Part shown: positions 1,121 to 21,728 of the stretch, piece by piece
How the letters are laid out: the number at the start of each line of letters is the position of its first letter
Position numbering within the stretch: position 1 is the first letter of the stretch
NCBI GenBank assembly: GCA_964387885.1
Contig: CAYLYZ010000084.1
Coordinates: 1-25,964 of the forward strand
Direction: 5' to 3'
Origin: an uncultured bacterium
Lineage (GTDB): Bacteria > Electryoneota > AABM5-125-24 > Hatepunaeales > Hatepunaeaceae
DNA length: 25,964 nucleotides
Position numbers and translations under genes: made by a program
Notes under the pieces: generated by a model
The model's database searches: none
Told to the model about the DNA's origin: nothing
What the model saw: only the letters and a program-made list of their open reading frames with translations

Positions 1121-3265
1121 ATGAAAACGACCTTAATATTCAGCTTGATTTTGATTACAACACTTTCAGGATTTTCTCAAGATAGTTCCGGAGTACGAAT
1201 GGTTGGGCAGGCTTTTCCACAATGGGGAGAAACTTACGACATGGAACTAGCTGGGAACATCCTCTTCGCTGCAAATAGACGGTTAGATATAGTAGACGCA
1301 AGTGATCCAGGAAATCCGGAGTATCTTTGGTTCAGCAACCGATTGGGCTCCTGCTACAGAGTTGAGGTAGATGGTCCGAGAGCCTTTTTGGCAACTTCAT
1401 CTTATTCCCGTGGGCGTGATATGTTTATACTCGACATCTCTGATTTATCAAATCCAAGGGAATTAGGTGTTTATTCAGATGATCTATCGCTATACGAGAT
1501 GATTGTGAAGGGCAATATCGCTTATTTACGCTCGCGAGATCAAGTTCAAATTCTGGACGTGACCACTCCTGACGACATCCGAATGATCTCCACCATTGAC
1601 ATAACTGATGATATGATCACGATGGATGATGATGGTGAATACATATTTGGATGCACTGAACGCGAAGGCATAAGAGTCTTCGATGTTTCAGATCCATCCA
1701 ATCCACACCAGATAAATTTCTTTCCTCTCGATATGCCTGTCGAGGATATCTCATATGCGGATGACAGAATCTATTTAGCAAATTCAACGCACCGGAACTT
1801 CGGTGTGACGGTTTTGGACGTTCGCGATGTAATGAATATAGATACTCTGCGTCATGTTTTGACTGGCAATAGTCGACCACTTAAGGTGTCTGCAAGAGAT
1901 ACGATGCTATTTGTTAGCACCGAACATTGGATCTATACTTATAGTATCGCAGATATTGATAATCCATTCAGAATCGGTAACGAAAGTTGTGAGCCCATTC
2001 TCTTTAAAATGAACGATTCTCTTTTATTTGTGAGAACTGAAAAGGAAAAGCCACTTTCAATTTTCAACTATAGAAATCCAGATGAATTGGTCGAGGTTGG
2101 TGGTATGAACAATGCATATAATGTTGATTTGATCAAATTTGCCGGTGACCGTATGTATGTTGATGAGACAATTTTCGATATCTCACGTCCGTTAAATCCA
2201 AGAAAACTTGGAAGCTTTCCCATTAGTGGTGTCATCGATTACGAGATCAACGATTCGTTTTTTCATGTAATCATTGAGGATCGCTATAAAGTGTTTGATG
2301 TAGCTGATCCAGCAAATATAGAGTTGAGAGCGGTGTTTGGCCATACTGGTCAGGATTTAATATTGAATGGAGATTATACCTATATTTCGAGTGGCAGTTT
2401 AGAGGTTCTGGATGCATCAGATCTGGGCTTTATCAGATCTGTCAACTCTATAAGCTCGGAAGAGATGACTGGATCAGCTGGTAATATGATAATTCGAGGG
2501 AATTACCTTTACAGTGTTTCGAAAAATAGTTTCGGGATTCTTGATGTATCGGAACCAGAATCGCCTATGTTAACTGGTAGTTATGATCTCAGTCCCAGAT
2601 GGATGGAATTTATGACTCCCGAATTTGTCCTCTACGATGACTATGCTTACATCGCTGCAGAAAAAGCCTTTTATATTTTAGATATCACTGAATTAGATAA
2701 TCCAGTTCTGGTTAGTGACTCTTTGGAATATAGATGCCGGAAGATTATTAGAGATGGAGATCATCTTTTACTTTCAGGAGTCAGGTGGGATTACCAACGA
2801 CACAGTGAATACGGACTCCAAATTCTGAGCCTGGAAGATCCAACTCACCCGAACATTGCGGGTTTCTATCAAACGCCCGGATTGGCTGAGATGTCAGGGG
2901 TAAGGGATGGACTCTGCTACGTTGCTGATGGCTCCAGTATCGTGATTCTTGATTTTTCTGAAGCACTTTCCACCCCATTTGGTCATGAACCGGAGTTTCA
3001 GCCATCAAAATTCTTTCTGACTGCTTATCCCAATCCCTTTAACTCGACAACAACAATCAACTTCAACATGCCTGGTATTGAAAAGGCTGAGCTTCGAGTC
3101 TATGATCTTCAGGGAAGACTGGTTCATGAGCTTGTGAACTGCAGACTCGACGCCGGGGAACACAATGTCAGGTTTGACGCGTCCGGGTTAGTAAGTGGAG
3201 TTTATCTGATGAAATTGGAATGTGGGTCGGAAATTACTTCACATAAACATGTAGTCCTAAATTGA
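1121..3265 (+). CDS. Secreted LVIVD-repeat beta-propeller protein with T9SS C-terminal sorting domain
   Basis: 714 aa with an N-terminal signal peptide (MKTTLIFSLILITTLSGFSQ). There are many LDIVDASDPGNPE / ILDISDLSNPRE / VFDVSDPSNPHQ type repeats. The C-terminus YPNPFNSTTTINF...GVYLMKLE is a canonical T9SS C-terminal domain. Confidence 0.75.
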   Translation: MKTTLIFSLILITTLSGFSQDSSGVRMVGQAFPQWGETYDMELAGNILFAANRRLDIVDASDPGNPEYLWFSNRLGSCYRVEVDGPRAFLATSSYSRGRDMFILDISDLSNPRELGVYSDDLSLYEMIVKGNIAYLRSRDQVQILDVTTPDDIRMISTIDITDDMITMDDDGEYIFGCTEREGIRVFDVSDPSNPHQINFFPLDMPVEDISYADDRIYLANSTHRNFGVTVLDVRDVMNIDTLRHVLTGNSRPLKVSARDTMLFVSTEHWIYTYSIADIDNPFRIGNESCEPILFKMNDSLLFVRTEKEKPLSIFNYRNPDELVEVGGMNNAYNVDLIKFAGDRMYVDETIFDISRPLNPRKLGSFPISGVIDYEINDSFFHVIIEDRYKVFDVADPANIELRAVFGHTGQDLILNGDYTYISSGSLEVLDASDLGFIRSVNSISSEEMTGSAGNMIIRGNYLYSVSKNSFGILDVSEPESPMLTGSYDLSPRWMEFMTPEFVLYDDYAYIAAEKAFYILDITELDNPVLVSDSLEYRCRKIIRDGDHLLLSGVRWDYQRHSEYGLQILSLEDPTHPNIAGFYQTPGLAEMSGVRDGLCYVADGSSIVILDFSEALSTPFGHEPEFQPSKFFLTAYPNPFNSTTTINFNMPGIEKAELRVYDLQGRLVHELVNCRLDAGEHNVRFDASGLVSGVYLMKLECGSEITSHKHVVLN

Positions 3266-3289
3266 TTATATGCTGACGAGTTTCGGAGA

Positions 3290-3309
3290 GGGTTGAAAAT
3301 ATTCAACCC
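3290..3309. terminator. Hairpin between convergent genes (GGGTTGAA-aata-TTCAACCC), possible bidirectional terminator
   Basis: A perfect 8-bp stem with a 4-nt loop sits between the stop at 3265 (+) and the stop at 3332 (-). There is no clear U-tract on either strand. Confidence 0.3.
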
Positions 3310-3331
3310 CTACGTCGACATACAATGGAGT

Positions 3332-4030
3332 TTATTGAATCGGGAAAAGGACAAAAATTGATACATCCCAAACAGCGTGTGAGACTATACCGGGCAACAC
3401 ACTACCAGTAACTTTATACAGCAATCCCCAGAAAACTCCGCACACGCCTGCAGCACCAATTAACATCAGGTTCATGCTTGGGATGTGAACCGCTGTGTAT
3501 GCGAGTCCGGCAATCAGGAATCCTACCCAGGGATTCCATTTTTTTGCGAACCTCTTCTGGACAAATCCACGCCAGAATATCTCCTCTCCGGGACCGATAG
3601 GGAAGAGGAGCAGCAAACCAATTGTCCATTGTGGTAATTGGGATTTTCGTCCGTATATCGAATCAATCTGTTGATCCTGATTGATAAACGATTGAGTAAC
3701 GATGTCCCCAAGGACGAAGATCCCGTATAAAATCGCAGCTGAAACTACTCCCCACGTTATAATTTTACCCCACGACCAATTGTATTTCAAAATACTACGG
3801 TCGTGGGAGAATGACCATATACTCAGGGAGGAGGTCGCAATCACCATCCATATCCAGAAGTTGCCATAATTGACCCTGAACATGAAAGTCCATAGGATCA
3901 GGGCTGCAAACACTCCGATCCAGACAGGTTTCAGATTTTGCTCATCAACTGCCTTAGAAGATGCTGGCAAGTACGAATCCCGCTGAGAGCAGTAAGCCGA
4001 AAAGCATGTGCAGTTGGGCTGTCGAAACAT
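3332..4030 (-). CDS. CPBP family intramembrane glutamic endopeptidase (CAAX protease / Abi domain)
   Basis: Multi-TM protein with the EExxxR motif (EEIFWRGF), FxxxH (YTAVHIP) and HxxxD (SHAVWD). The ATG at 4030 overlaps the upstream gene by 77 nt; an in-frame TTG at 3970 would give a 17-nt overlap and may be the true start. Confidence 0.7.
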   Translation of the reverse strand: MFRQPNCTCFSAYCSQRDSYLPASSKAVDEQNLKPVWIGVFAALILWTFMFRVNYGNFWIWMVIATSSLSIWSFSHDRSILKYNWSWGKIITWGVVSAAILYGIFVLGDIVTQSFINQDQQIDSIYGRKSQLPQWTIGLLLLFPIGPGEEIFWRGFVQKRFAKKWNPWVGFLIAGLAYTAVHIPSMNLMLIGAAGVCGVFWGLLYKVTGSVLPGIVSHAVWDVSIFVLFPIQ

Positions 4031-4871
4031 CGAGAGTTGCCAGATCGCCCGGAGTGTCAGGTCTGGCAGCGTTGGTGATTTTATGTAACTTGATCGATGG
4101 GATCAGGCTGATTAATGCAACTAATGTCCAAACCGGTGCAACTTTTGTGATGACTAGTACAATTAGAGTCACGTATGCAGACATAACTAAAAGCTTGTAA
4201 TTACGTTTGGATGGTTTCCATCCAATCAAGCTCGGGATTGTAACGAAACCGGCTCGGGTGTCATGCGTGATATCACGGAGATTATTTGCATTCAGGATGG
4301 CAGCAACAAGGATTGATATCGGTAGTGAAACCAACACAGGAGTCCATGATATTTGTTGTGTCTGAACGTAATATGCTCCAAATACCATTAATGGTCCCAT
4401 TAGTGTAAAGACTAATGGTTCCCCAAGTGCTTTGTATTTATAACCAAACGGATCTGCTGTGTAAAAATAACCTCCGAGAATACCGATAAGACCAAGTGCA
4501 ACTATTACCCAGCCTAAATGATACACTAAATATACACCAATCAGAAAAGCCACACCGAAGGCTACTATTCCTCCACGGAGGACATCTTTGGGTTCCATCA
4601 GTTTTTCAACTAAGATTCTACTCGATCCGAAAGAATCAGGGGTATCAGCTCCGGCTTTCAAATCAAAGTATTCAGAAACTAAATTTGTTCCAGTATGTAA
4701 TAACACACCACCAAGCATTGCAGCGATAAAAAATAGATAATTAAACTGTCCCTGATCAAAATAGGCGAGGGCTGTACCAAGAAGAACCGGTACTACGGAT
4801 GCAGAATAAGCAAATGGTCGCGCCGCTTGCATCCATAGGCTGAATCTGGAACGAGTTATATTTTCAGACAT
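3954..4871 (-). CDS. UbiA-family prenyltransferase, MenA-like (1,4-dihydroxy-2-naphthoate polyprenyltransferase)
   Basis: 305 aa, about 8 TM helices. The Asp-rich motif SEYFDLKAGADTPDS resembles the MenA NDYxDxxxGxD motif. A second motif NNLRDITHDTRAG is present. Confidence 0.6.
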   Translation of the reverse strand: MSENITRSRFSLWMQAARPFAYSASVVPVLLGTALAYFDQGQFNYLFFIAAMLGGVLLHTGTNLVSEYFDLKAGADTPDSFGSSRILVEKLMEPKDVLRGGIVAFGVAFLIGVYLVYHLGWVIVALGLIGILGGYFYTADPFGYKYKALGEPLVFTLMGPLMVFGAYYVQTQQISWTPVLVSLPISILVAAILNANNLRDITHDTRAGFVTIPSLIGWKPSKRNYKLLVMSAYVTLIVLVITKVAPVWTLVALISLIPSIKLHKITNAARPDTPGDLATLDVSTAQLHMLFGLLLSAGFVLASIF

Positions 4872-4993
4872 TTCGTTTCCTTTTTATGGTTAAATAATTT
4901 ACCACGAAATAAAAATATAGGTTGGCTGTTATTAATTGTCAAGTAAATGCATTTTTTGTTTGATACAAATTCTGATAACTTACCATTCGAATC

Positions 4994-7453
4994 TTACCAT
5001 TCAAATCTTACCCCACCCACAAAGAATAATCCGAGCTGGTGAACCGGCTCTTTAGCATTTATTTCAGGTACATTCGGATCAATTGGTTGAGTAGGATATG
5101 TATAATCAGTAATATTAGCACGATCGAAAACATTCTGCGCTTCGAGAAAAACTATTATTGATCGTCCACCGGTGTACCATTTGCTATCCCACCTGATATC
5201 CAGCTTCGAATAAGCCGGATACCTCGCACTATTAGGAATATCGGATCTTTTCCAGGTATATTTGGATTCAGAATCGTTTTTTGACCAAATCTTCGGTGTA
5301 TAAGGTCTTCCTGATACATATCTGAACCGAGAAGATACTGTGAGTTCATCGCCACTTACGGGCAAAAGGAATGACCAGTAGCCGTACCAGTGCTTTTGGA
5401 ATTTTCGCACCGATAATCCACTGAAATTATATCCCAATACGATCGTTGCAACATCTCGATAATCATAATCTGCCGGATATGTTAGGTTATTAAGCACTTC
5501 GACTGAATCAACATCCTCATAACGGGGAGCAGTAGTTAAGGCTTTTGCAAAAGAATAAGCGGCAGTTCCATACCAGTTATCTGAGAGTTTTTGTTGGATA
5601 AATAGTTCTACTCCACGAGTTTCCTTATTCTTGAGTGAAAGATATTGAAAAGTTTTTTGAGTGCGATTCAAACTATTGGTCATCCATTGGAGGGAAAGGG
5701 GTAGACTGGAATAAAATTTCAGATATCCCTCAATGCTGATCCTGGTGGATTCTGTAAGTAAATAGGAAAATCCTCCAATGTAGTGATCTGCTCTTTTATG
5801 GGGCAATTCCCTGTTAGCCTCATGAGAGAGGTAATCTATTATTGACAGAGCCTGGTAATATCTCCCATAGGCAATCGAACAGGAAATTCGGGAATTTACT
5901 CTCCATTTGGCAGAAAGACGCGGTGCTAAAGTTACATCATCGGAGAATTCAAATCCATCAATCCTTAACCCTCCCAAAATCGAAAGACTTTCAATCGGTC
6001 TCCAACGATATTGAAGATATCCCCCATATTTCAGCGAAGTCTGCTTCGATTCAATACGCAACTCTTGTTTTTCATCATCCCCACCGTCCGCGGCATCAAT
6101 ACTTGTAACAATGTCATCTTCACTCAACTGCAGCCATACATCATGAGAATATGTAATTGGCTTAAGCGAAATTCCCGCGAATAATTGATCAACGTTCCTT
6201 GTATTTAGTGTCAGGTTAACGTGTACCTGATCGGTCGTTTCAGTGCTTCGTGCAAAAGCGTAAAGGTTGCTTATTCTTTCACCTACAACATTCTCATAGA
6301 CATCAAATAAATCATAGCTGCCGGAAATTTGACTCCGTCCAATAACAAGTTCCGTAAATCCCCTGTCCATCAGCATGCGCAAACGAGCACCAAGGGCTAC
6401 TGTATGATCTTTGGCATCGATTGTCTCTGCACCGCGTGACCAGGCACCTTCTTCCATGGCATCAATTTTAACCCAATCTTTTAAATAAAGGCCAAACACG
6501 GAAATGTTGGTTGTTGGTGAGGGAAACGAAGATATTTTAAACTGTGAGTCCCAGAAATAGGGTACTGCAGGTAATTCGAGCTGATCCTTAAGAATATCAA
6601 TATAACTCCTTCTGAACGACAACAAGTATGATCCGTTAGTTAATGGTATTCCACCTTCGAGATTTAATCCGACACTTGCAACGGAAGTCTCTAGCTGACC
6701 TCTGAAATTATCCTTATCTCCATCTCGGAGCTCTAAATCGAGTATACTTGATAATTTATCACCGTATTTTGCTGAAAATCCTCCGGTTGAAAATGTAACA
6801 TCCTCGAGAAATTCAATGTTAACAGCACTCATTGGACCACCCGAGGTTGTGGGATCGGGGAAGTGATTGATATTGTCAATTTCCAATCCATCAATAATTG
6901 TCAAATGTTCTGCAAAGCTCCCGCCTCGTACGATAATTTCATTTGTTAGATCATTCTGACTGAAAACACCTGGAATAGCCTGAATTGTTCTCAACACATC
7001 TTCGAAAGCTCCCGGAGCTCTCCTGACTTCTTCATAACTCAATGTTTGGGTGGAAGATGGTAGGTTAGGTTTATCCTGGAAATATCCACTTCTGACAGTA
7101 ACTTCCTTCCCTTTGATTACCGTTGGATCGAGATGAAACTCAAGTGTCACCACTCTACCAGCTGAAACTGAAACTTCTCCTCGCGACATACTTGCAAATC
7201 CTAATGCGCTGGCAGTAATATGATAGGTTCCCGGTTTGAAACCTTGAATGATAAACCGACCATCAAGATCAGATGCAGCGCCAATATCCGTCCCAGCCAC
7301 TACAATATTTGCCCCCGGGATGGGAGAAAGATTGGAAGAATCTAAAACTCTTCCCTTTACACTTCCGGGATTAATCTTTGCATGTACTGAACAACTGCAT
7401 GAAAAAACGACCACGCAGAAAATCGTTAACACGATCTTTTTGTAGCAAAACAT
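4994..7453 (-). CDS. TonB-dependent outer-membrane receptor with N-terminal carboxypeptidase-regulatory-like domain
   Basis: 819 aa with a signal peptide. It has a CarbopepD_reg-like segment (GRVLDSSNLSPIPGANIVVAGTD...GRF), a plug-like region (FSTGGFSAKYGD) and a C-terminal aromatic residue (..GVRFEW) typical of OM beta-barrels. Confidence 0.7.
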   Translation of the reverse strand: MFCYKKIVLTIFCVVVFSCSCSVHAKINPGSVKGRVLDSSNLSPIPGANIVVAGTDIGAASDLDGRFIIQGFKPGTYHITASALGFASMSRGEVSVSAGRVVTLEFHLDPTVIKGKEVTVRSGYFQDKPNLPSSTQTLSYEEVRRAPGAFEDVLRTIQAIPGVFSQNDLTNEIIVRGGSFAEHLTIIDGLEIDNINHFPDPTTSGGPMSAVNIEFLEDVTFSTGGFSAKYGDKLSSILDLELRDGDKDNFRGQLETSVASVGLNLEGGIPLTNGSYLLSFRRSYIDILKDQLELPAVPYFWDSQFKISSFPSPTTNISVFGLYLKDWVKIDAMEEGAWSRGAETIDAKDHTVALGARLRMLMDRGFTELVIGRSQISGSYDLFDVYENVVGERISNLYAFARSTETTDQVHVNLTLNTRNVDQLFAGISLKPITYSHDVWLQLSEDDIVTSIDAADGGDDEKQELRIESKQTSLKYGGYLQYRWRPIESLSILGGLRIDGFEFSDDVTLAPRLSAKWRVNSRISCSIAYGRYYQALSIIDYLSHEANRELPHKRADHYIGGFSYLLTESTRISIEGYLKFYSSLPLSLQWMTNSLNRTQKTFQYLSLKNKETRGVELFIQQKLSDNWYGTAAYSFAKALTTAPRYEDVDSVEVLNNLTYPADYDYRDVATIVLGYNFSGLSVRKFQKHWYGYWSFLLPVSGDELTVSSRFRYVSGRPYTPKIWSKNDSESKYTWKRSDIPNSARYPAYSKLDIRWDSKWYTGGRSIIVFLEAQNVFDRANITDYTYPTQPIDPNVPEINAKEPVHQLGLFFVGGVRFEW

Positions 7454-7557
7454 CCGCTAATCTTTGTTAATATTGATTTTTCAGATATAAGATAAGAACT
7501 TTTCTTTCTCTTTCATGAACATTGTTTCAGTAAAAAGCATATTTTTTATATTTTTTC

Positions 7558-7627
7558 TTGACTGACATGTAATTATTGCTTACTTTGCACATATGTTATG
7601 TGATAATGGACATTTGTACACATTATG
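7558..7627 (+). promoter_or_regulatory. Putative promoter/operator region of the BMC operon: TTGACT -35-like, extended -10-like TGtGATAAT, and phased ACATnTGT palindromic motifs
   Basis: TTGACT is at 7558-7563 and TGTGATAAT at 7599-7607. ACATGT is at 7566, ACATATGT at 7589, ACATTTGT at 7610 and ACATTATG at 7620, spaced about 10 or about 21 bp apart. Confidence 0.3.
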
Positions 7628-8584
7628 CTAAAGACATCGGAAAAAACATCATCGCTTGTGGATGTAGCAAGGTTATACTACGAGCATGATTACAGTCAGC
7701 AGGACATTGCGAGAAAACTCGGGATTTCACGACCCAGTGTCTCGAGAATGCTGCAAAAGGCTCGAGAATTGGGCATAGTCCGAATTAAGATCTATGATCC
7801 TGAACAGCGAGGTTCGCATCAGGAAAAAGCTTTACAACAAATATACGGGCTCAAAAAGGTAATTCTCGTACCTAATGAGGACGCAACGGATCTAGTAATT
7901 AAGCAGAGGTTGGGATTTGTAGCGGCCAGATACCTTGACGAACTTCTTGAGGATGGTCTCACAGTTGGGGTTTCCTGGGGATCAACGATGCAGGAGGTTG
8001 TTAAGCACCTTCAGCACAGGACAATTCGCAACATGACGGTAGTTCAACTGAATGGTGGAATTTCGAGAGCAGAGTATAACACTCATGCAAGCGAGATTGC
8101 GCTGAAAATAGGAAAAAACTATCAGGCGATACCCTTTCTGTTGCCGTTACCGGCGATAGTCGACCAGGTACGAGTCAGAAGAGCGATTATTACCGATAAA
8201 AACATTGCCAAAACACTAAATCTTGCAAGAGAAGCTCAAATTGCAATGTATACCGTTGGAGCTTTCAGCTTCAACTCTGTGCTTGTAAAAGCTGATTACT
8301 TCGAGACTGAGGAAGTTGAAGAACTTTTAACCGACAAGGCAGTAGGTGATATATGTTCGCGGATAATTGATGAAAATGGGAACATATGTAACTCGAAGCT
8401 CAATGCCCGGACAATTGGTATAAGTCTAAGTGATTTAAAAAAGAAGAAATACGCTATTGCAGTCGCAGGTGGCATGGAAAAGCTCAACGCAATCAGAGCT
8501 GGATTGCGAGGTAATTATTTTAATGTACTTATCACAGATGAGTGGGTTGCTTCAAAGCTATTAGAAAACGCTGACATTTCCTGA
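7625..8584 (+). CDS. SorC/DeoR-family sugar-phosphate-binding transcriptional regulator
   Basis: N-terminal HTH ([41 protein letters not shown]) is typical of SorC/CggR/B. subtilis DeoR. The C-terminal region is a sugar-binding domain. The gene leads the BMC operon. Confidence 0.8.
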
Positions 8585-8594
8585 AATAAAGAAT

Positions 8595-10004
8595 ATGAAT
8601 TCATCTGAAAAACAAATTATCGCAATAGGTTCCGATCATGGTGGTTACCAACTTAAGGAAAAACTAAAAGAATACCTGACTCGCAATGGATTCAATGTAA
8701 ATGACTGCGGAACTTTCAGCACTGAGGATGTTGACTATCCGAAATTCGCATATCTGACCGCGAAGGAAGTTTCAGATGGGAACGCACATTTCGGCATAAT
8801 CGTCGATGGTGCAGGAATTGGTTCGGCTATGACAGCAAATAAAGTTGGGGGTATACGAGCTGCACTCTGCTACGATGTTTCATCAGCAAACAACGCACGT
8901 GAACATAATAATGCCAACGTTTTAACACTGGGCTCCGGATTAATAGGGGAAAACCTGGCCAAACAGATTTGCGATAAATTCCTGTCAGTAGACTGTACCG
9001 TTGACCGACACCTTAAACGGGCAAGTATGATTGATGAACTTGACAAAGGTATAATCCCGTTTTCTGCAATTAATGCTTCAAAGACCAGCAATAAAAAGGA
9101 CAATCACCCGATGGAATTGTCAAGTCAGGATCTAACTCGTATTGCAGATCGAATACGAGAAATGCTCTCAACCGATGTTGCAGAACCTAAAAAACATCAG
9201 AGCGCTTGTGGTGATGCAAACTGTAATAATTGTGGTCATTGTGCTGAAAAAACTCCGGATACAATAAGAAAATATCTTGACCTTGGTGCGGGAAGGATTT
9301 CTCATAAATCAGGTTCAGGTTACATTCCAAAGGATATTGCTGGAATTATCGACCATACAATACTCAAACCGGATGCGACCGAAGATGACATTATCACACT
9401 TTGTAACGAAGCTCGCGAACATGGATTTGCTTCGGTTTGTGTGAATCCTACCTTTGTGTCTCTGGCAAGGAGAGAACTTGTTGGTACTGACGTTCAGGTT
9501 TGTACGGTAGTAGGTTTCCCTCTTGGTGCGCACATGTCAGAGATTAAAAGTATGGAAACCCGACGTGCTATTCGTGAAGGTGCACGAGAAATCGACATGG
9601 TTATAAATATCGGAGCCCTGAAAAGCGGGAAAGATGATCTCGTTTACGACGACATTCGCAAAGTGGTGGATGCATGCGAGGATGGAGGCGCTCTAAGCAA
9701 GATAATTATTGAAGCTGCACTTTTAACAGATGATGAAAAGATCCGAGCCTGTCAACTCTGCAAACGAGCTCGTGCCAATTATGTTAAAACCTCTACCGGA
9801 TTCGCTCCCGGTGGCGCAACAGAAAAGGATGTCGCCCTGATGAGCAGTGTGGTGAAAGACTCCGGGATAGGTGTTAAAGCTGCCGGTGGGATAAAAGATT
9901 ATAAAGATTTTGAAAAGATGGTTTCGGCAGGTGCCACGAGAATTGGTGCCAGTGCCGGGATAAAGATTGTTCAGGGAGCCAGGGAAGTTACGGTCTCGAA
10001 TTGA
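8595..10004 (+). CDS. Fusion protein: ribose-5-phosphate isomerase B (RpiB/LacAB) N-domain + deoxyribose-phosphate aldolase (DeoC/DERA) C-domain
   Basis: Residues 1-150 carry [13 protein letters not shown]...[18 protein letters not shown] (RpiB fold). Residues about 245-469 carry [12 protein letters not shown]...CVNP...YVKTSTGF, the DERA Schiff-base Lys motif. A 50-aa linker with an amphipathic helix and a C-x4-C-x2-C-x2-C motif joins them. Confidence 0.8.
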
Positions 10005-10028
10005 ATGCTGTGTGTATATCACCTGTAG

Positions 10029-10048
10029 GGGCGAATAATCATTCGCCC
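10029..10048. repeat. GC-rich palindromic element copy (GGGCGAAT-aatc-ATTCGCCC)
   Basis: A perfect 8-bp stem. It belongs to an approximately 26-nt element, TGTAGGGGCGAATAATCATTCGCCC. Confidence 0.5.
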
Positions 10049-10102
10049 TTAGTAGCAAGTGAACAGCATTTAGGTCATGTCCTACAAAGTAAGATTTGTT
10101 TT

Positions 10103-10129
10103 GGGCGAATAATTATTCGCCCCTACGAC
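10103..10129. repeat. Inverted copy of the same palindromic element (GGGCGAATAATTATTCGCCCCTACGA)
   Basis: A 20-nt perfect palindrome. Its reverse complement is near-identical to the element at 10024-10048, forming an inverted doublet about 55 nt apart. Confidence 0.5.
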
Positions 10130-10163
10130 AGTAAAATCTTTTATATAAAGGGGAGGTAAACTC

Positions 10164-10787
10164 TTGGTAGACCTTCGCGCATACGTTTTTTTAGATAGTA
10201 TTCAACCACAGTACGCGGCATATCTCGGTACAGTGGCAAAAGGTTTTTTGCCTATTGCAGGCATGGCATCGCTGTATGTCGAGATTTCACCTGGCATCGA
10301 GATCAACAGGATTACAGATATTGCTCTGAAATCGACGAACGTGACTCCCGGGATGCAAATCGTTGAGCGACTCTATGGAATGCTTGAAATTCATTCTAAT
10401 TCGCAGGCAGATGTTCGGCAAGCGGGACAAGCAATTCTCGAAGCCCTTGATCTTAAGGAAGAGGACAGGTGGAAACCAAAGATCTACTCACAGCAGGTCA
10501 TACGACGAGTGGACGACCACCAGACACAGCTAATTAACCGGATGCGGTTTGGAAATATGATTATCCCTGGTGAAACGTTATTTGTCATGGAAGTTGCTCC
10601 CGCTGCGTATGCGGCTCTTGCAGCAAATGAAGCAGAAAAAGCTGCTGAAATCAACATCCTCGATGTACGTGCATTTGGAAGTTTTGGCAGAGTCTACCTT
10701 GGTGGTGAAGAACGCGATATTGATGTCGGTTGGCGTGCTGCCGTTAAGGCAATTGAAGAAGTTACAGGAAAAGAACAATCTAAATAA
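10164..10787 (+). CDS. BMC shell protein, tandem BMC-domain (BMC-T) with 33-aa N-terminal extension
   Basis: Two canonical BMC domains are present: [25 protein letters not shown] resembles PduA ALGMVET...ADAMVKSANV, and [29 protein letters not shown]...G...[13 protein letters not shown] is the second. TTG start with a GGGAGG SD 7 nt upstream; an alternative ATG at 10263 would begin directly at domain 1. Confidence 0.55.
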
Positions 10788-10801
10788 ATTTTGGAGAAGA
10801 A

Positions 10802-11116
10802 ATGGCAGAAGCACTGGGAATGTTGGAAACACGCAGTTTTCCTGCGGTAGTCGAAGCCGCTGATGCTATGGTAAAAGCTGCAAAAGTTGAATTAGTATCA
10901 TACGAAAAAACAGGTGGCGGGTATGTCACTGCTATTATCCGTGGTGATGTAGCTGCAGTTAAAGCTGCCTGCGATGCCGGTCGTGCGGGAGCTGCGAGAG
11001 TAGGTGAAATCGTTGCTGTTCATATCATTGCCCGTCCGCATTCTAATGTTGACTTTATCATGCCGCTTGGTCGTGAGGAAGATGGCAAGGCGGGAATGGA
11101 GCGTCTTAGTAAATAG
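10802..11116 (+). CDS. BMC-H hexameric shell protein (PduA/EutM/CcmK family)
   Basis: [60 protein letters not shown] is a textbook BMC domain (PF00936). Confidence 0.9.
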
Positions 11117-11135
11117 TCGCTCTTAAGGAGGTATT

Positions 11136-11435
11136 ATGGTTCTCGCCAAAGTTGTCGGGACATTGGTTTCGACACAAAAAGAAGAGAGTCTCGAGGGGCT
11201 GAAATTCCTGATACTGCGCAATGTTGAGATCAATGGCAAAGTCGGCAAAGGTTTTGTAGTCGCAGCTGATGGTGTGGGAGCTGGTATAGGAGAAATGGTT
11301 TTGTACGCAAGTGGCAGCTCAGCCCGTCAAACCAAATTGACCGAAAACCGCCCCTGTGACTCAATTGTTATGGCAATTGTTGATAATTGGGAAGTTGACG
11401 GGAAGTTAAAGTACAAGAAGGGAGTTAACGATTAA
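11136..11435 (+). CDS. BMC-P pentameric vertex protein (EutN/CcmL/PduN family), paralog 1
   Basis: MVLAKVVGTLVSTQKEESLEGLKFLILRNV...GFVVAADGVGAGIGEMVLYASGSSAR is the EutN/CcmL signature. A strong AAGGAGG SD precedes it. Confidence 0.85.
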   Translation: MVLAKVVGTLVSTQKEESLEGLKFLILRNVEINGKVGKGFVVAADGVGAGIGEMVLYASGSSARQTKLTENRPCDSIVMAIVDNWEVDGKLKYKKGVND

Positions 11436-11486
11436 GAGTGATTATTACATATCACTCGAATTGTATGGGCACGATGCTCGTGCCCA

Positions 11487-11505
11487 TTACTTCTTTGTTC
11501 AAGGT
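11487..11505. repeat. GC-rich hairpin GGGCACG-atgct-CGTGCCC (member of GGGCR..YGCCC family)
   Basis: 7-bp GC stem followed by ATTAC, lying between the BMC-P gene and the aldehyde dehydrogenase gene. Confidence 0.5.
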
Positions 11506-11540
11506 TTCGACTTTTAATGATATCGTTATCAATCAAACAG

Positions 11541-11559
11541 GGGCACGGGCACCGTGCCC
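11541..11559. repeat. GC-rich hairpin GGGCACGG-gca-CCGTGCCC (second copy of pair)
   Basis: 8-bp stem followed by TTAC, 35 nt downstream of the previous hairpin. Confidence 0.5.
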
Positions 11560-11603
11560 TTACGCTTTAACAGCATCTAATAATTATTAATTATGGAAGA
11601 GCT

Positions 11604-13055
11604 GTGTCCCGGTTAACAGACGAACAAGTAAATATCATTGCTGCTGAAGTCATAAAGCAACTTAAACAACCTGAATCCGGAAATTCTTCAGATAGAAGCA
11701 AAACAGCTTCTGCTCCATTAACATCGTTCGGAGCAGGAATCTTTGCCGATATTGATTCAGCAGTTAAGGCTGCACGTCTGGCTCACGAAAGGCTTGTGAG
11801 TATGACACTTGAGCAACGAAAAAAAATAATTTCGAACGTTCGCAAGCGAATGCTCGAGGCAACTGAAGAATTGTCTCGAATGGCGCTCGAAGAGACCGGC
11901 CTTGGTAGGTTCGAAGATAAAATTCAGAAAAACAGACTTGTTACGCTGAAAACTCCGGGAACAGAAATTCTTCAGCCAACAGCATGGTCGGGTGACAGAG
12001 GACTTACATTGATGGAATTGGCTCCTTATGGTGTTATAGGAGCAATAACTCCTGTTACCAACCCAACATCGACGATCATATGCAATTCAATTGGCATGGT
12101 TGCTGCTGGAAACGCAGTGGTATTTAACGTTCATCCAAGTGCTAAGAATACCAGCATCAGGAATATTATCCTGCTCAATGAAGCAATAACTGAAGTTGGT
12201 GGACCGGAGAATGTCATTACATGCATATCAGAGCCTACAGTAGAGAGTGCTACTGAGCTGATGCACCATCACGGTGTCAGGTTGTTAGTCGTAACAGGTG
12301 GTGGTGCAGTAGTTAAGGCAGCTATGAACAGCGGGAAACGGGCTATTTGTGCAGGACCCGGTAATCCTCCAGCTGTCGTTGATGAAACCGCAGATATCGA
12401 TCTTGCTGCAAAAAGCATTGTTGCAGGTGCTTCTCTCGATAACAACATTATCTGTGTACTCGAGAAGACCGTCATAGCGGTTGATTCTATCTCCGATTCA
12501 CTCATTGAAGCATTTCAAAGACACAATGCGGTATTGCTGACACAAGAGCAGTTCAACCAATTAGAACCGATTATCTTCTCAAAGACTAACGGACCGCGCA
12601 AATATGCAGTGGTGGACAAAGATTTGATCGGAAAGAACATACAGGTGATTCTTTCGAAAATCGGAATGACTGTACCTGATAATATCCGACTTGCGGTGGT
12701 TGAGGTAGATGCGGATCATCCCCTGGTCTGGACTGAACAGATGATGCCGGTAATGCCATTGGTCAGGGTATCTGATGTAGATAAAGCAATTGAGCTTGCC
12801 AGGGAATCCGAACATGGTTACCAACATACAACAGTTATGCACTCGACCAACATCAACAACCTTTCAAAAATGGCGCGAGAGATGAATTGCAGTATATTTG
12901 TCAAGAATGCACCCGGACCTGCCGGCCTGGGATATAACGGCGAAGGTTATTGTTCATTCTCAATTGCGAGCCCAACCGGTGAAGGATTGACGAATGCGCG
13001 GAGTTTTTCCCGCGAGAGGCGTTGTACGTTAGTTGATAATTTCAGAATTGTATGA
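11604..13055 (+). CDS. CoA-acylating aldehyde dehydrogenase (PduP/EutE-like BMC aldehyde dehydrogenase) with N-terminal encapsulation peptide
   Basis: GTG start. ELAPYGVIGAITPVTNPTSTIICNSIGMVAAGNAVVFNVHPSA and the catalytic Cys motif LDNNIICVLEKTV match PduP/EutE. The N-terminal amphipathic helix TDEQVNIIAAEVIKQLKQ plus a Ser/Ala linker looks like an encapsulation peptide. Confidence 0.85.
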   Translation: MSRLTDEQVNIIAAEVIKQLKQPESGNSSDRSKTASAPLTSFGAGIFADIDSAVKAARLAHERLVSMTLEQRKKIISNVRKRMLEATEELSRMALEETGLGRFEDKIQKNRLVTLKTPGTEILQPTAWSGDRGLTLMELAPYGVIGAITPVTNPTSTIICNSIGMVAAGNAVVFNVHPSAKNTSIRNIILLNEAITEVGGPENVITCISEPTVESATELMHHHGVRLLVVTGGGAVVKAAMNSGKRAICAGPGNPPAVVDETADIDLAAKSIVAGASLDNNIICVLEKTVIAVDSISDSLIEAFQRHNAVLLTQEQFNQLEPIIFSKTNGPRKYAVVDKDLIGKNIQVILSKIGMTVPDNIRLAVVEVDADHPLVWTEQMMPVMPLVRVSDVDKAIELARESEHGYQHTTVMHSTNINNLSKMAREMNCSIFVKNAPGPAGLGYNGEGYCSFSIASPTGEGLTNARSFSRERRCTLVDNFRIV

Positions 13056-13663
13056 TTAGAAGATATCCTGCAATAGCCCTGCTTGAATTATCCGGAATCT
13101 CCCGTGGTGTCGTAACAAGCGATGCAATGGTCAAACGAGCTCCGATAACGATGATAAAGTCGGGGACGATCTCGGAAGGTAAGTATCTTATCCTCGTCGG
13201 GGGAAGTGTCGCTTCAGTCGAGGAAGCTTTTGCTGCCGGAATGTCAATCGGGGGAAATTCAATTATCGATCATGTAATCCTGCCGGATGTTCATACCCAG
13301 GTTCACGATTCGATACTCGGAACAAAACGTAAACCAGCTGCTGATGCATTGGGATTAATTGAAACGAGCACTGTAGCTGCAACTATCAGATCGATGGATG
13401 CTGCGATCAAAAGTACAAAGATAGATATTGTCGAATTGAGGTTGGGTGATAACCTTGGCGGAAAAGCATTTGCTATATTCTCCGGCAAGGTCGAAGATGT
13501 ACAAACTGGAATGGACATTATTCATGAAGTATCAGGCGGGAAAGAGTATTTGACTGCAGAAGAGATTATCCCGAGATTGGCTGATGTGATAGGCAAACAA
13601 CTCGAATCAGGCAGCAGATTTGCTGAAATCAGGGCCAGCATATTAGAAGACGGGGAGCTCTGA
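13052..13663 (+). CDS. BMC-T tandem-domain shell protein (PduT-like)
   Basis: Two BMC domains: IALLELSGISRGVVTSDAMVKRAPITMI... and ALGLIETSTVAATIRSMDAAIKSTKIDIV... It overlaps the aldehyde dehydrogenase stop by 4 nt (ATGA). Confidence 0.75.
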   Translation: MIRRYPAIALLELSGISRGVVTSDAMVKRAPITMIKSGTISEGKYLILVGGSVASVEEAFAAGMSIGGNSIIDHVILPDVHTQVHDSILGTKRKPAADALGLIETSTVAATIRSMDAAIKSTKIDIVELRLGDNLGGKAFAIFSGKVEDVQTGMDIIHEVSGGKEYLTAEEIIPRLADVIGKQLESGSRFAEIRASILEDGEL

Positions 13664-13664
13664 T

Positions 13665-13952
13665 ATGATGTTGGGAAGGGTATTCGGTACTGTCACGGTC
13701 AGTGTAGTTTACGAGGGATTGGAGGAGACTCCGATGCTGCTCGTGCAGCCTCTCGATAAACGCCAACAGCCTGAAGGTGATTTCGTTGTCGCAGCCGATC
13801 CGACACGAATGGCAGGACCGGGCGAGCTGATATACTACGAAGCCAGCCGCGAAGCCGCCTTACTGTGTGATCCCTGGTTCGTCCCTGTAGATCATGCGAT
13901 AGTTGGGATAGTCGACGACGTCCACCTCTCAAACCACCCGGACGAGCAATGA
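13665..13952 (+). CDS. BMC-P vertex protein (EutN/CcmL family), paralog 2
   Basis: MMLGRVFGTVTVSVVYEGLEETPMLLVQPLD...DFVVAADPTRMAGPGELIYYE is an EutN-like fold signature. Confidence 0.75.
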   Translation: MMLGRVFGTVTVSVVYEGLEETPMLLVQPLDKRQQPEGDFVVAADPTRMAGPGELIYYEASREAALLCDPWFVPVDHAIVGIVDDVHLSNHPDEQ

Positions 13953-14209
13953 AAATCGGACGCGTCAGCGGAACTCTGCACAGCACTATCAACCATCCTT
14001 TTTACGACAACAGGAAAATCCTCGTCGTAGACTTGCTAAGCCCGGACAAAACCGAAACCGGAAAATACTTGATCGCATTAGATGTTGTTGATGCCGGAGT
14101 AGGGGAGACGGTGCTGATCGTTGATGAAGGCAACTCCGCCCGGCAGGTTTTTGATGCGAAGAATGGCCCTGTCCGGTCTGTGATTGTAGGAATTGTAGAC
14201 GAATATTAG
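13949..14209 (+). CDS. BMC-P vertex protein (EutN/CcmL family), paralog 3
   Basis: MKIGRVSGTLHSTINHPFYDNRKILVVDLLSPDK...YLIALDVVDAGVGETVLIVDEGNSARQ. There is an ATGA overlap with the previous gene. Confidence 0.8.
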   Translation: MKIGRVSGTLHSTINHPFYDNRKILVVDLLSPDKTETGKYLIALDVVDAGVGETVLIVDEGNSARQVFDAKNGPVRSVIVGIVDEY

Positions 14210-17576: not shown

Positions 17577-17607
17577 GAAAGTTCTCCGATAGTTCAGTTT
17601 ATTTACA

Positions 17608-17642
17608 AGTCCCGATTTTTGTGAAAATCGGGACTTTTTTCT
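17608..17642 (+). terminator. Rho-independent terminator of the FG-GAP/T9SS gene
   Basis: AGTCCCGATTTT-tgtg-AAAATCGGGACT has a 12-bp stem and is followed by TTTTTT. Confidence 0.75.
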
Positions 17643-17666
17643 CATCAAGTTCTTCGATTATTGAAT

Positions 17667-17693
17667 GTGGAGTGCTCAAGCCACGCTTGAGCA
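17667..17693 (+). repeat. REP copy 1 (GGAGTGCTCAAGCCACGCTTGAGCA), followed by second hairpin TCGAAGC-aaa-GCTTCGA
   Basis: Palindromic stem TGCTCAAGC/GCTTGAGCA. The same unit recurs five more times around the transposase gene. Confidence 0.7.
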
Positions 17694-17770
17694 TCGAAGC
17701 AAAGCTTCGAACAAAACTGATACTGAGTTCATGCGTTAACTCGATGCAAAACTTTCCATCCAACAAAATA

Positions 17771-17794
17771 GCTCAAGCATGGCTTGAGCACTCC
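17771..17794 (-). repeat. REP copy 2 (inverted orientation)
   Basis: GCTCAAGCATGGCTTGAGCACTCC is the reverse complement of GGAGTGCTCAAGCCATGCTTGAGC. It lies 9 nt from the transposase stop. Confidence 0.7.
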
Positions 17795-17802
17795 ATAATC
17801 CT

Positions 17803-18324
17803 CTAAAAGTCATCAACAATATTTAATCTATCTATCGGCAATGATAATATCTCATTATAAAATCCCTTTTTACTATTCTCAATAAACCAACCTGCAGAAC
17901 AAAACGGGTAATCCAGGGGATTTTCAACCAAACCATGTTTTACCGGATTGTAGATCACGTATTTCATTCTGGCAAAATAGCTTTTTTCATTGCTAATGCA
18001 AGTATCCCAGTATTGATACCAAATTCTCCTGCCCGGACAGTAATCTATCTTATTTACCAATCGCGAAGCCTGAGAATGTATTCTTTGAATTGTGTTCTTC
18101 AGAGGTTTAGAATCTTCAGTGGAACATGCAATCAGATGATAATGATTTGCAAACACTGCCCAGGCAAGTATTTGCCAGTTATATTCATCCAAAACGTCCA
18201 ATATAGTTTTAGTCAGGATTGATAACTTTTTTTCTGTGTTAAAGAATTTTGCTTTCTGGTAGGTACTTGCAGTGATTATATAAAACGAGTTGTGTTGAAA
18301 AATGTGTAAAGGTCTGTGAGACAT
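17803..18324 (-). CDS. REP-associated tyrosine transposase (RAYT; IS200/IS605-like HUH Y1 transposase)
   Basis: 173 aa with the HUH motif (ANHYHLI) and a C-terminal catalytic Tyr motif, YVIYNPVKHGLV. It is flanked by inverted REP copies. Confidence 0.75.
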   Translation of the reverse strand: MSHRPLHIFQHNSFYIITASTYQKAKFFNTEKKLSILTKTILDVLDEYNWQILAWAVFANHYHLIACSTEDSKPLKNTIQRIHSQASRLVNKIDYCPGRRIWYQYWDTCISNEKSYFARMKYVIYNPVKHGLVENPLDYPFCSAGWFIENSKKGFYNEILSLPIDRLNIVDDF

Positions 18325-18337
18325 TCTTATGTCCTTC

Positions 18338-18483
18338 TGGAGTGCTCAAGCCATGCTTGAGCGTTTGCGAAAATTATTCAAAACAAAAAGCTAAATTATG
18401 GAGTGTTCAAGCCATGCTTGAGCGTTTGCGAAAATTATGCAAAACTCCAATCTATTTGTGGAGTGCTCAAGCCATGCTTGAGC
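18338..18483 (+). repeat. Tandem ~62-bp repeats each beginning with a REP (copies 3, 4, 5)
   Basis: The units are GGAGTGCTCAAGCCATGCTTGAGCGTTTGCGAAAATTATTCAAAAC..., then GGAGTGTTCAAGCCATGCTTGAGCGTTTGCGAAAATTATGCAAAAC..., then GGAGTGCTCAAGCCATGCTTGAGC. Confidence 0.7.
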
Positions 18484-21708: not shown

Positions 21709-21728
21709 GGGCACGTAGCAACGTGCCC
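21709..21728. repeat. GC-rich hairpin GGGCACGT-agca-ACGTGCCC
   Basis: Perfect 8-bp stem, 25 nt downstream of the previous hairpin; the paired arrangement matches the other two sites. Confidence 0.5.

Follow-up and report, generated by a model that had tools for sequence, protein, structure and literature searches.

Sugar phosphate-utilizing (SPU) loci form one of the most widespread types of bacterial microcompartment (BMC) and are thought to give feeders on detritus access to deoxyribose from environmental DNA. They were defined in 2014, in a paper that also noted one from Marinimicrobia in which aldolase and isomerase are fused and PduL is missing (PMC4207490), and the 2021 catalogue lists more than 280 SPU loci from 26 phyla, divided into seven subtypes (Sutter 2021, Nat Commun). 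Their signature enzyme, deoxyribose-5-phosphate aldolase (DERA), is reported to be unique to SPU loci (PMC11585597). Here, we describe a nine-gene operon at 7625-14209 on the forward strand of a 25,964-nucleotide stretch of an uncultured bacterium (contig CAYLYZ010000084.1, assembly GCA_964387885.1; the whole stretch is called the window below), which is very probably a catabolic metabolosome operon of the subtype SPU3.

The published account of SPU3 (Sutter 2021, Supplementary Data 2) gives one a fairly complete list of parts with which to compare a new locus. Its enzymes are an aldehyde dehydrogenase (AldDH) and proteins of PF01791 and PF02502, which in some loci are fused, with PF02502 N-terminal; the AldDH bears an N-terminal encapsulation peptide (EP), and there is a possible EP between the fused domains. 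The shell consists of one standard BMC-H, a triplet of BMC-P proteins, a CcmP-like Tdp, and a Ts that lacks both a pore cysteine and a PduS partner, and the locus contains no phosphotransacylase (PTAC). The hosts include Calditrichaeota and Marinimicrobia.

Experimental work comes from other members of the class. In SPU6 (Chloroflexi bacterium GWB2_54_36), the DERA has been purified and is active on deoxyribose-5-phosphate, with a Km of ~0.1 as reported (Dwyer, Sutter & Kerfeld 2024, PMC11585597). The accompanying ribose-5-phosphate isomerase homologue (RPI) forms a complex with the DERA and was inactive on ribose-5-phosphate, other substrates being left open by the authors, and the replacement of Cys66 by Asp is reported for all SPU RPIs (PMC11585597). 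Further, a 2025 preprint describes the reconstitution of SPU-like shells of Hodarchaeales, with EP-dependent recruitment (PMC12747264). A first-pass annotation of the window, made from the sequence alone, had stated that the class is known from genome surveys only and has no characterized member; given the SPU6 enzymes studied in vitro in 2024 and the archaeal shells of 2025, this is outdated. Nor is the setting unusual: a Marinimicrobia fusion locus was described in 2014 (PMC4207490), and both Calditrichaeota and Marinimicrobia are among the recorded hosts of SPU3.

The nine co-directional genes that had been proposed are all present (Table 1), and their GC content (0.42-0.48) does not depart from that of most of the window. 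In a Pfam profile search, all nine proteins scored above the gathering cut-offs, and every open reading frame (ORF) matched the family expected of it (BMC, EutN/CcmL, AldDH, DeoC, RpiB, or Sugar-bind). This bears out the claimed shell set of one BMC-H, two BMC-T, and three BMC-P proteins (three PF00936 and three PF03319 proteins), as well as the PduP/EutE-like acylating AldDH (PRK15398, 648 bits) and the SorC/DeoR-family regulator at the head of the operon (PF04198 and a helix-turn-helix, 237 bits). The fusion of DERA and RpiB exists, in the order RpiB N-terminal (PF02502, residues 9-146) and DERA C-terminal (PF01791, residues 252-457). The description of the operon as tightly packed is right for most junctions and fails at two internal gaps, one of 159 nt between the fusion gene (8595-10004) and the Tdp gene (10164-10787) and one of 168 nt between the first BMC-P gene (11136-11435) and the AldDH gene (11604-13055). 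Instead of several ATGA overlaps, there are only two, both of 4 nt (at 13052 and 13949).

Judged by the published text description and by gene order, rather than by assigning the shell proteins to color clades with hidden Markov models, the locus appears to be of subtype SPU3 and matches the description item by item. It shares the order of the fusion, an EP-like helix between the two domains, one BMC-H, the BMC-P triplet (two of them adjacent), a CcmP-like Tdp, a Ts without the cysteine, and the lack of PduS and PTAC; a possible EP lies at the AldDH's N-terminal end. Assignment to the SPU class as a whole is supported by the PF00936 and PF03319 shell proteins, the BMC-P triplet, the Asp/Lys/Lys set of DERA and the extension before its barrel, the change of Cys66 to Asp in the RpiB-like domain with His99 kept, and the acylating AldDH. 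We found no essential difference from SPU3 loci; the lineage of the window adds a DeoR-type SorC regulator, which lies outside the published description, with conserved operator boxes, and hairpins in the two internal gaps that resemble REPINs (paired repetitive extragenic palindromic, or REP, elements). The locus is intact and well formed, and it clearly exemplifies a type that earlier surveys had recorded from these bacterial groups; it brings no new principle. The additions made here are small: the DeoR-like operator, an Asn at the position of DeoR K141, a patchy four-Cys motif in the fusion, and the REPIN-like hairpins in the gaps.

Table 1. Features of the SPU3-type locus, in coordinates of the window
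Feature	Position	Strand	Evidence or remark
Operator-like box 0, TGAACATTGTTTCA	7516..7529	+	upstream of -35-like hexamer
-35-like hexamer TTGACT, putative operon promoter	7558..7563	+	(C)TTGAC(A) at equivalent place in 7/7 related loci
Operator-like box 1, TTGCACATATGTTA, degenerate here	7585..7598	+	positional match in relatives
Operator-like box 2, TGGACATTTGTACA, 5 nt 5' of regulator ATG	7607..7620	+	scan match
SorC-family (DeoR-subfamily) regulator, 319 aa	7625..8584	+	PF04198 and helix-turn-helix
RpiB-DERA fusion, 469 aa, signature enzyme	8595..10004	+	PF02502, PF01791
GC-rich palindrome pair with identical stems, 10029-10048 and 10103-10122	10029..10122	+	in 159-nt gap, REPIN-like
BMC-Tdp, CcmP-like double-stacking trimer, 207 aa, TTG start	10164..10787	+	PF00936, NCBIfam CcmP
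BMC-H hexamer, 104 aa	10802..11116	+	PF00936, 100 bits
BMC-P paralogue 1, 99 aa	11136..11435	+	PF03319, 92.8 bits
GC-rich palindrome pair, 11465-11487 and 11541-11559	11465..11559	+	in 168-nt gap, REPIN-like
Acylating aldehyde dehydrogenase, 483 aa, GTG start	11604..13055	+	PF00171, PRK15398
BMC-Ts, PduT-like, tandem-domain, 203 aa	13052..13663	+	two PF00936 domains
BMC-P paralogue 2, 95 aa	13665..13952	+	PF03319, 59.5 bits
BMC-P paralogue 3, 86 aa, final gene of locus	13949..14209	+	PF03319, 81.1 bits

Both SPU6, the only subtype whose enzymes have been assayed, and the window have an extended DERA with the Asp/Lys/Lys set and an RPI in which Cys66 has become Asp while His99 is kept (PMC11585597). 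In SPU6, however, the RPI and the DERA are encoded as two proteins, which associate in a complex, whereas in the window they are fused; the SPU6 AldDH belongs to another branch and carries its EP at the C-terminus, whereas the EP-like peptide of the window is N-terminal. SPU6 has a Tdp of another clade and no Ts, and its regulator is of the GntR/UTRA type, in contrast to the CcmP-like Tdp, the Ts, and the SorC regulator found here.

The signature enzyme consists of an RpiB-like part (residues ~9-150), an extension, and a DERA barrel (~247-462). The DERA part scores 287 bits against the NCBIfam deoC equivalog TIGR00126, with a cut-off of 117, and D334, K398, and K428 align with D102, K167, and K201 of the Escherichia coli enzyme; across 120 homologues D334 and K428 do not vary, nor does K398 in an alignment of 26 sequences. 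With the aligned Cys of the AldDH, these residues support the chemistry that had been predicted, that is, the cleavage of deoxyribose-5-phosphate, which gives glyceraldehyde-3-phosphate plus acetaldehyde, with the latter being converted to acetyl-CoA.

The RpiB-like part passes the NCBIfam rpiB equivalog cut-off (146.6 vs. 138.65 bits) and shows a weaker likeness to LacA/LacB and to erythrulose-4-phosphate isomerase (98 bits). D71 takes the place of the catalytic C66 of E. coli RpiB, and H99 is retained as H104; among the 120 fusion homologues, Asp is found at the former position in 118 and His at the latter in all. The pocket residues D14, H15, H104, N105, R138, and R142 are invariant in the 26-sequence alignment, which covers diverse fusions, and because of this the domain is under constraint, whatever its function. 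It is probably a packing or complex partner of DERA, or it has some other activity.

The ~95-residue extension between the domains matches no solved structure. An AlphaFold2 model built from the 26-sequence alignment is confident for the RpiB and DERA domains, whereas the predicted local distance difference test score falls below 50 over most of 158-246. The 14-residue segment 178-191 is amphipathic and has the highest helical hydrophobic moment of the whole fusion protein; a helix is predicted at 177-191, where the model is of low confidence, and its sequence pattern is conserved in the 120 homologues. We infer that it is EP-like, and an internal helix between the domains has been proposed as an EP (PMC11585597; Sutter 2021 Supplementary Data 2).

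Between this helix and the DERA barrel, the extension also carries the motif C205-x4-C210-x2-C213-G-x-C216. At least four Cys are present in the extension of 80 of the 120 fusion homologues (about two thirds) and Cys also occur there in many stand-alone SPU-type DERAs, some with no shell gene within 10 kb; the four-Cys motif was never seen in housekeeping DERAs. When their texts were searched, the 2024 SPU paper proved silent on the motif (PMC11585597), and the word "cysteine" appears nowhere in the 2025 preprint (PMC12747264). The motif is a possible Zn or Fe-S site. As SPU3 lacks a phosphotransacylase, an alcohol dehydrogenase, PduS/MNdh, and an Fe-S pore in its Ts, one might go further and suppose that it runs on an unrecognized internal logic in which neither part serves just for packing, with the Cys module binding a metal or an Fe-S cluster and the Asp-type RpiB pocket being catalytic or handling a cofactor (e.g., for redox relief or the removal of glyceraldehyde-3-phosphate), but this we consider quite unlikely.

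Full-length homologues of the fusion number in the hundreds in a large protein collection. RpiB-like and extended DERA genes, fused or adjacent, also occur in ten loci from metagenome-assembled genomes (MAGs) of Acidobacteriota and Chloroflexota (L017, L027, L033, L034, L041, L045, L047, L050, L065, and L073), with no shell gene in ~10 kb on either side; the amphipathic helix is still present in their DERAs, as in most cases is the Cys motif. Such loci suggest enzyme modules placed away from their shell loci or a use outside compartments.

The AldDH aligns with the BMC-associated acylating enzyme 5jfl (447 bits), including the catalytic Cys within DNNxxC(V)xEK, and relatives match it over its full length. 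Its N-terminus holds an EP-like helix at residues ~5-21, TDEQVNIIAAEVIKQLK, followed by a low-complexity linker of ~25 residues (to ~45); the catalytic core begins near residue 44 in the alignments, which places the peptide outside it. The peptide is EP-like in pattern, and its hydrophobic moment is outside the top five of the protein.

Among the shell proteins, the Tdp has the lowest PF00936 score (27.4 bits), as expected for a permuted domain. It scores 339.1 bits against the NCBIfam CcmP equivalog, with a cut-off of 340, and its alignment with beta-carboxysome CcmP (5lsr/4ht5) runs gap-free over 204 residues at 281 bits, ahead of CsoS1D at 190 bits; the ERLYG segment, which bears the gating Glu-Arg pair, is conserved. 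Unlike the CcmP system, the window has no carboxysome cargo, and the presumed role of its Tdp is the passage of phosphosugar and/or cofactors for a catabolic core. With CcmP scores this near the threshold, automatic annotation may label close non-cyanobacterial relatives of the Tdp as proteins of carboxysomes. In the BMC-H, the edge motifs KAAK and (A)RPH align with PduA, and the three BMC-P proteins share 30-34% pairwise identity (31-34% between paralogue 1 and the other two), with the genes at 13665-13952 and 13949-14209 adjacent. The Ts matches 3pac with 122 bits and PduT (3n79) with 115 bits; the NCBIfam PduT-like score of 107.6 bits is far under the equivalog cut-off of 250.3. It has no pore cysteine, as Ser replaces the Cys that serves as Fe-S ligand in PduT (TISEGKY vs. 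TICPGKF).

The closest solved relative of the regulator is Bacillus subtilis DeoR (8r7y, 251 bits, full length; see also 4oqp), with a very similar helix-turn-helix, whereas NCBIfam DeoR_Bac (NF053881) gives 372 bits, under its equivalog cut-off of 420. N143 of the regulator aligns with DeoR K141, which we take to be the lysine that forms a Schiff base with deoxyribose-5-phosphate. An Asn stands at this position in all eight SPU-linked regulators, that is, in the window and seven relatives. In B. subtilis, DeoR represses the DERA operon dra-nupC-pdp and is released by deoxyribose-5-phosphate, which it binds covalently (PMC11229326).

The window and seven related loci were also compared by eye in the spacer that precedes the SorC gene. 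Each has a TTGAC(A/T) hexamer and, after it, two boxes with the consensus TGAACA-N2-TGTTCA, and a third box is found at -110 in the window and in L084, an 80%-identical relative, where the counterpart of box 0 is TGAACAAATTTTCA (offset -109/-110). [quoted passage not shown] Scanning for TGAACANNTGTTCA with up to two mismatches yielded two matches in the window (box 0 and box 2), both within the 171-bp spacer before the regulator. With up to one mismatch, the 118 kb of the seven related loci gave ten matches, every one of them upstream of the SorC start by no more than 110 bp and at one of three fixed offsets, near -20, -42, and -109.

The half-site of the boxes resembles that of the DeoR operator (TTGAACA...TTCAA, ACATATGTTCAA; PMC11229326), and in both systems TTGAACA/TGTTCAA-type boxes lie on both sides of the -35 of an operon with a DERA gene. 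They differ in box spacing, and the regulator of the window is encoded within the operon that it presumably controls. Because the boxes are conserved and their half-site is like that of DeoR, we see good evidence for a DeoR-like autoregulated operon with putative operators, whose effector is most likely deoxyribose-5-phosphate or a close relative. The analogy with DeoR made in the first-pass annotation is upheld by the best solved relative and the DeoR-like operator upstream, and it is weakened by the score below the cut-off and the Asn at the position of K141. A promoter and terminator scan of the window gave counts no better than those of shuffled sequences and was used only to flag the hairpin at 11465.

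Taken together, the parts suggest how the operon would work. The SorC repressor would bind the TGAACA-N2-TGTTCA-type boxes over the promoter and 5' untranslated region of its own gene, and the operon would be released when a phosphosugar effector, most likely deoxyribose-5-phosphate or a close relative, builds up. By homology, the BMC-H, the two BMC-T, and the three BMC-P paralogues should form a polyhedral shell, into which the fusion and the AldDH would be packed by their amphipathic helices, internal (178-191) in the former and N-terminal in the latter, as sequence pattern and published precedent suggest. DERA would then split deoxyribose-5-phosphate, yielding glyceraldehyde-3-phosphate along with acetaldehyde, given the residues seen here and the activity of the SPU6 homologue, and the AldDH, with its Cys in place, would convert the confined acetaldehyde with CoA and NAD+ to acetyl-CoA and NADH. 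Since the locus, like SPU3 in general, lacks a phosphotransacylase, an alcohol dehydrogenase, PduS/MNdh, and the Fe-S cysteine of the Ts, the cofactors must cross the shell; CoA/acetyl-CoA and NAD(H) would do so most plausibly through the gated pore of the CcmP-like Tdp, and a Tdp pore has been suggested for cofactor exchange (Dwyer et al. 2024, PMC11585597). In all, the probable fuel of the compartment is deoxyribose from DNA that the cell has scavenged.

Where the substrate may come from is best seen in relatives. In L088 (Calditrichaeota), a PGM/PMM-family mutase gene and a pyrimidine-nucleoside phosphorylase gene (5982-8690) lie directly 5' of the SorC and fusion genes, and in L089 (Marinimicrobia) a PGM/PMM-family mutase gene (3528-4880) lies directly 5' of SorC. 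L089 also has a TatD DNase-family gene (699-1478), which lies upstream of the mutase gene by another ~3.6 kb and is separated from it by three genes of unrelated kinds. The mutase is a candidate for a phosphopentomutase other than DeoB, and this gene content implies a supply route in the relatives from nucleoside through deoxyribose-1-phosphate to deoxyribose-5-phosphate.

The gene order fusion-Tdp-H-P-AldDH-Ts-P-P was compared in a set of 80 genome loci and is identical in MAGs of at least 10 phyla. The taxa with the same order are Neomarinimicrobiota, Planctomycetaceae, Krumholzibacteriota, Woeseiaceae, Elusimicrobia, and Thermoanaerobaculia, as well as Opitutales, Lentisphaerae, Acidimicrobiia, Polyangiaceae, and Chloroflexi. 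Because one order recurs so widely, the SPU3 gene set is a conserved, horizontally mobile module. L084 keeps the whole operon, and its synteny with the window ends directly after the last BMC-P gene (13949-14209), which marks the 3' boundary of the module.

Several observations bear on the host. Residue-identical proteins are found on contigs from marine metagenomes, the longest being 58.7 kb (JGI 3300007510/3300007511; ENA SUTE22-1 samples), and related contigs are labeled Calditrichota. The contig of the window is listed as JGI 3300007510 Ga0105013_1001492 and ENA ERZ23498639 scaffold_1510, and on the right-hand side the matching contigs stop shortly beyond the tricorn protease gene. This neighboring protease falls in a 90% cluster, and the members of it that carry a name are Calditrichota MAGs. 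In species-representative genomes, the closest fusions are from Neomarinimicrobiota (58-62% identity), and in the large collection, the nearest named fusions are from Calditrichaeota and Marinimicrobia MAGs. A marine uncultivated bacterium from the FCB (Fibrobacteres-Chlorobi-Bacteroidetes) group is a fair description of the host.

A number of points weigh against the reading of the locus as a working, deoxyribose-consuming SPU3 metabolosome and should be kept in mind. There is no cofactor-recycling enzyme in the locus, and the step of exchange through the shell is an assumption. SPU enzyme assays cover SPU6 only, and we found no SPU3 enzyme or purified fusion in the literature; shell formation and the encapsulation of cargo are here predicted from the genes alone. 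The strongly conserved RpiB-like pocket argues for more than scaffolding and sits poorly with a packing role. On the side of regulation, the DeoR_Bac score is below its cut-off, the Asn at the K141 position may mean that the effector differs or binds differently, and the operator boxes of the window are degenerate, with 2-3 mismatches. Finally, no nucleoside phosphorylase, phosphopentomutase, or deoxyribokinase gene was found within the 26-kb window, and the supply of substrate in this genome is presumed.

Alternatively, the same shell and AldDH might serve another phosphosugar. The RpiB-like domain would then be a working aldose-ketose isomerase that uses Asp71 as its base, with the phosphate of a tetrose or of a hexose, or the product glyceraldehyde-3-phosphate, as candidate substrates, and DERA would cleave or form a different aldol adduct. 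The invariance of the pocket in 26 fusions and of D71 in all but two of the 120 looks like selection on a site, the likeness to LacA/LacB and erythrulose-4-phosphate isomerase points the same way, and the regulator lacks the lysine of DeoR K141, for which we presume a covalent role. The SPU6 RPI is inactive on ribose-5-phosphate, with other substrates open, but the SPU DERA is active on deoxyribose-5-phosphate (PMC11585597). The deoC score also exceeds its cut-off by far, the three catalytic DERA residues are present, nucleoside phosphorylase and mutase genes adjoin the locus in relatives, and the operator resembles that of a deoxyribonucleoside regulator, all of which makes a different phosphosugar unlikely.

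It is very improbable that the locus was gained horizontally and now survives as a silent or decaying relic that makes no compartment. One could point to operator boxes more degenerate than in the relatives, to the REP-like hairpins that have invaded two intergenic gaps, to the lack of substrate-supply genes nearby, and to a locus type that has clearly spread across phyla by horizontal transfer. All nine ORFs, however, are intact and full-length when compared with homologues and solved structures, the catalytic and gating residues are kept, identical proteins occur in several independent metagenome samples, the 80%-identical relative retains the operon, and the GC content of the locus matches that of its flanks. 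Confusion of a carboxysome-like locus, or of a characterized class such as propanediol utilization (PDU), ethanolamine utilization (EUT), glycyl-radical enzyme microcompartment (GRM), or Planctomycetes-Verrucomicrobia microcompartment (PVM), with SPU is hardly credible, even though the Tdp is near CcmP and the AldDH and shell proteins resemble Pdu and Eut proteins. The first-pass annotation had itself named another characterized class as the alternative, and no PDU, EUT, GRM, or PVM signature enzyme was found among the 18 large ORFs of the window: these had no match to diol/glycerol dehydratase, EutBC, glycyl-radical enzyme, or class II aldolase, nor to PduS, PduL, or alcohol dehydrogenase, nor, in Pfam, to RuBisCO, CcmM/N, or carbonic anhydrase. 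The only signature-type enzyme is DERA. A carboxysome reading, prompted by a CcmP score within one bit of the cut-off, was rejected for want of cargo genes.

As an SPU3 operon, the locus extends the known set by one from the marine water column, in the FCB group. The main puzzle of this subtype is how NAD+ and CoA are recycled without a recycling enzyme. A compact nine-gene operon with its own regulator and a recognizable operator makes a convenient SPU3 construct, as do its less degenerate relatives, and the conserved operator gives one a direct handle on whether deoxyribose-5-phosphate induces.

The palindromes of each pair in the two internal gaps have identical stems, and each pair can fold as one long hairpin, with predicted RNA folding energies of -57.4 kcal/mol for the 10029 gap (z = -6.2 vs. 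shuffles) and -59.2 kcal/mol for the 11465 gap (z = -6.65). An Rfam scan of the whole window gave no match, so that neither gap contains a riboswitch or other RNA known to it, and the ORFs in both gaps are short, overlapping, and unconvincing. A third GGGCACG hairpin is present in the window at 21709-21728. L084 has unrelated hairpin pairs in the same two gaps (9872-10033 and 11405-11581), and the more distant relatives have no hairpins there. Elsewhere in the window, a gene on the reverse strand (17803-18324, 173 aa) resembles Y1 transposases of the IS200 type (PF01797, weak, 24 bits), and the palindrome GCTCAAGC-N3-GCTTGAGC occurs four times around it (at 17673, 17771, 18344, and 18465, in the region 17607-18483). 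This is the typical layout of a REP-associated tyrosine transposase (RAYT), and because of it the hairpins of the operon are probably REP/REPIN-type elements. They may shape the stability or processing of mRNA segments and so set the ratio of enzyme to shell.

The flanks are as first described, with three proteins bearing the C-terminal sorting domain of the type IX secretion system (T9SS; PF18962) and a divergent TonB-dependent receptor. We dropped a functional tie to this receptor upstream, as it is a neighbor only in L084 and is not beside the L088, L089, and L090 loci. In L084, it is duplicated, with two tandem copies of an 819-aa receptor at 1723-6857; downstream, a cluster of genes for a ResIII helicase, DUF6088, AbiEii, and a methyltransferase stands where the window has its T9SS FG-GAP gene. 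A 748-aa ORF without a Pfam match (18669-20915, reverse strand) lies beside the RAYT-like gene of the window, in a tract of low GC content (0.34-0.36 vs. ~0.42-0.45), and the low-GC stretch around 18-21 kb may be an inserted segment.

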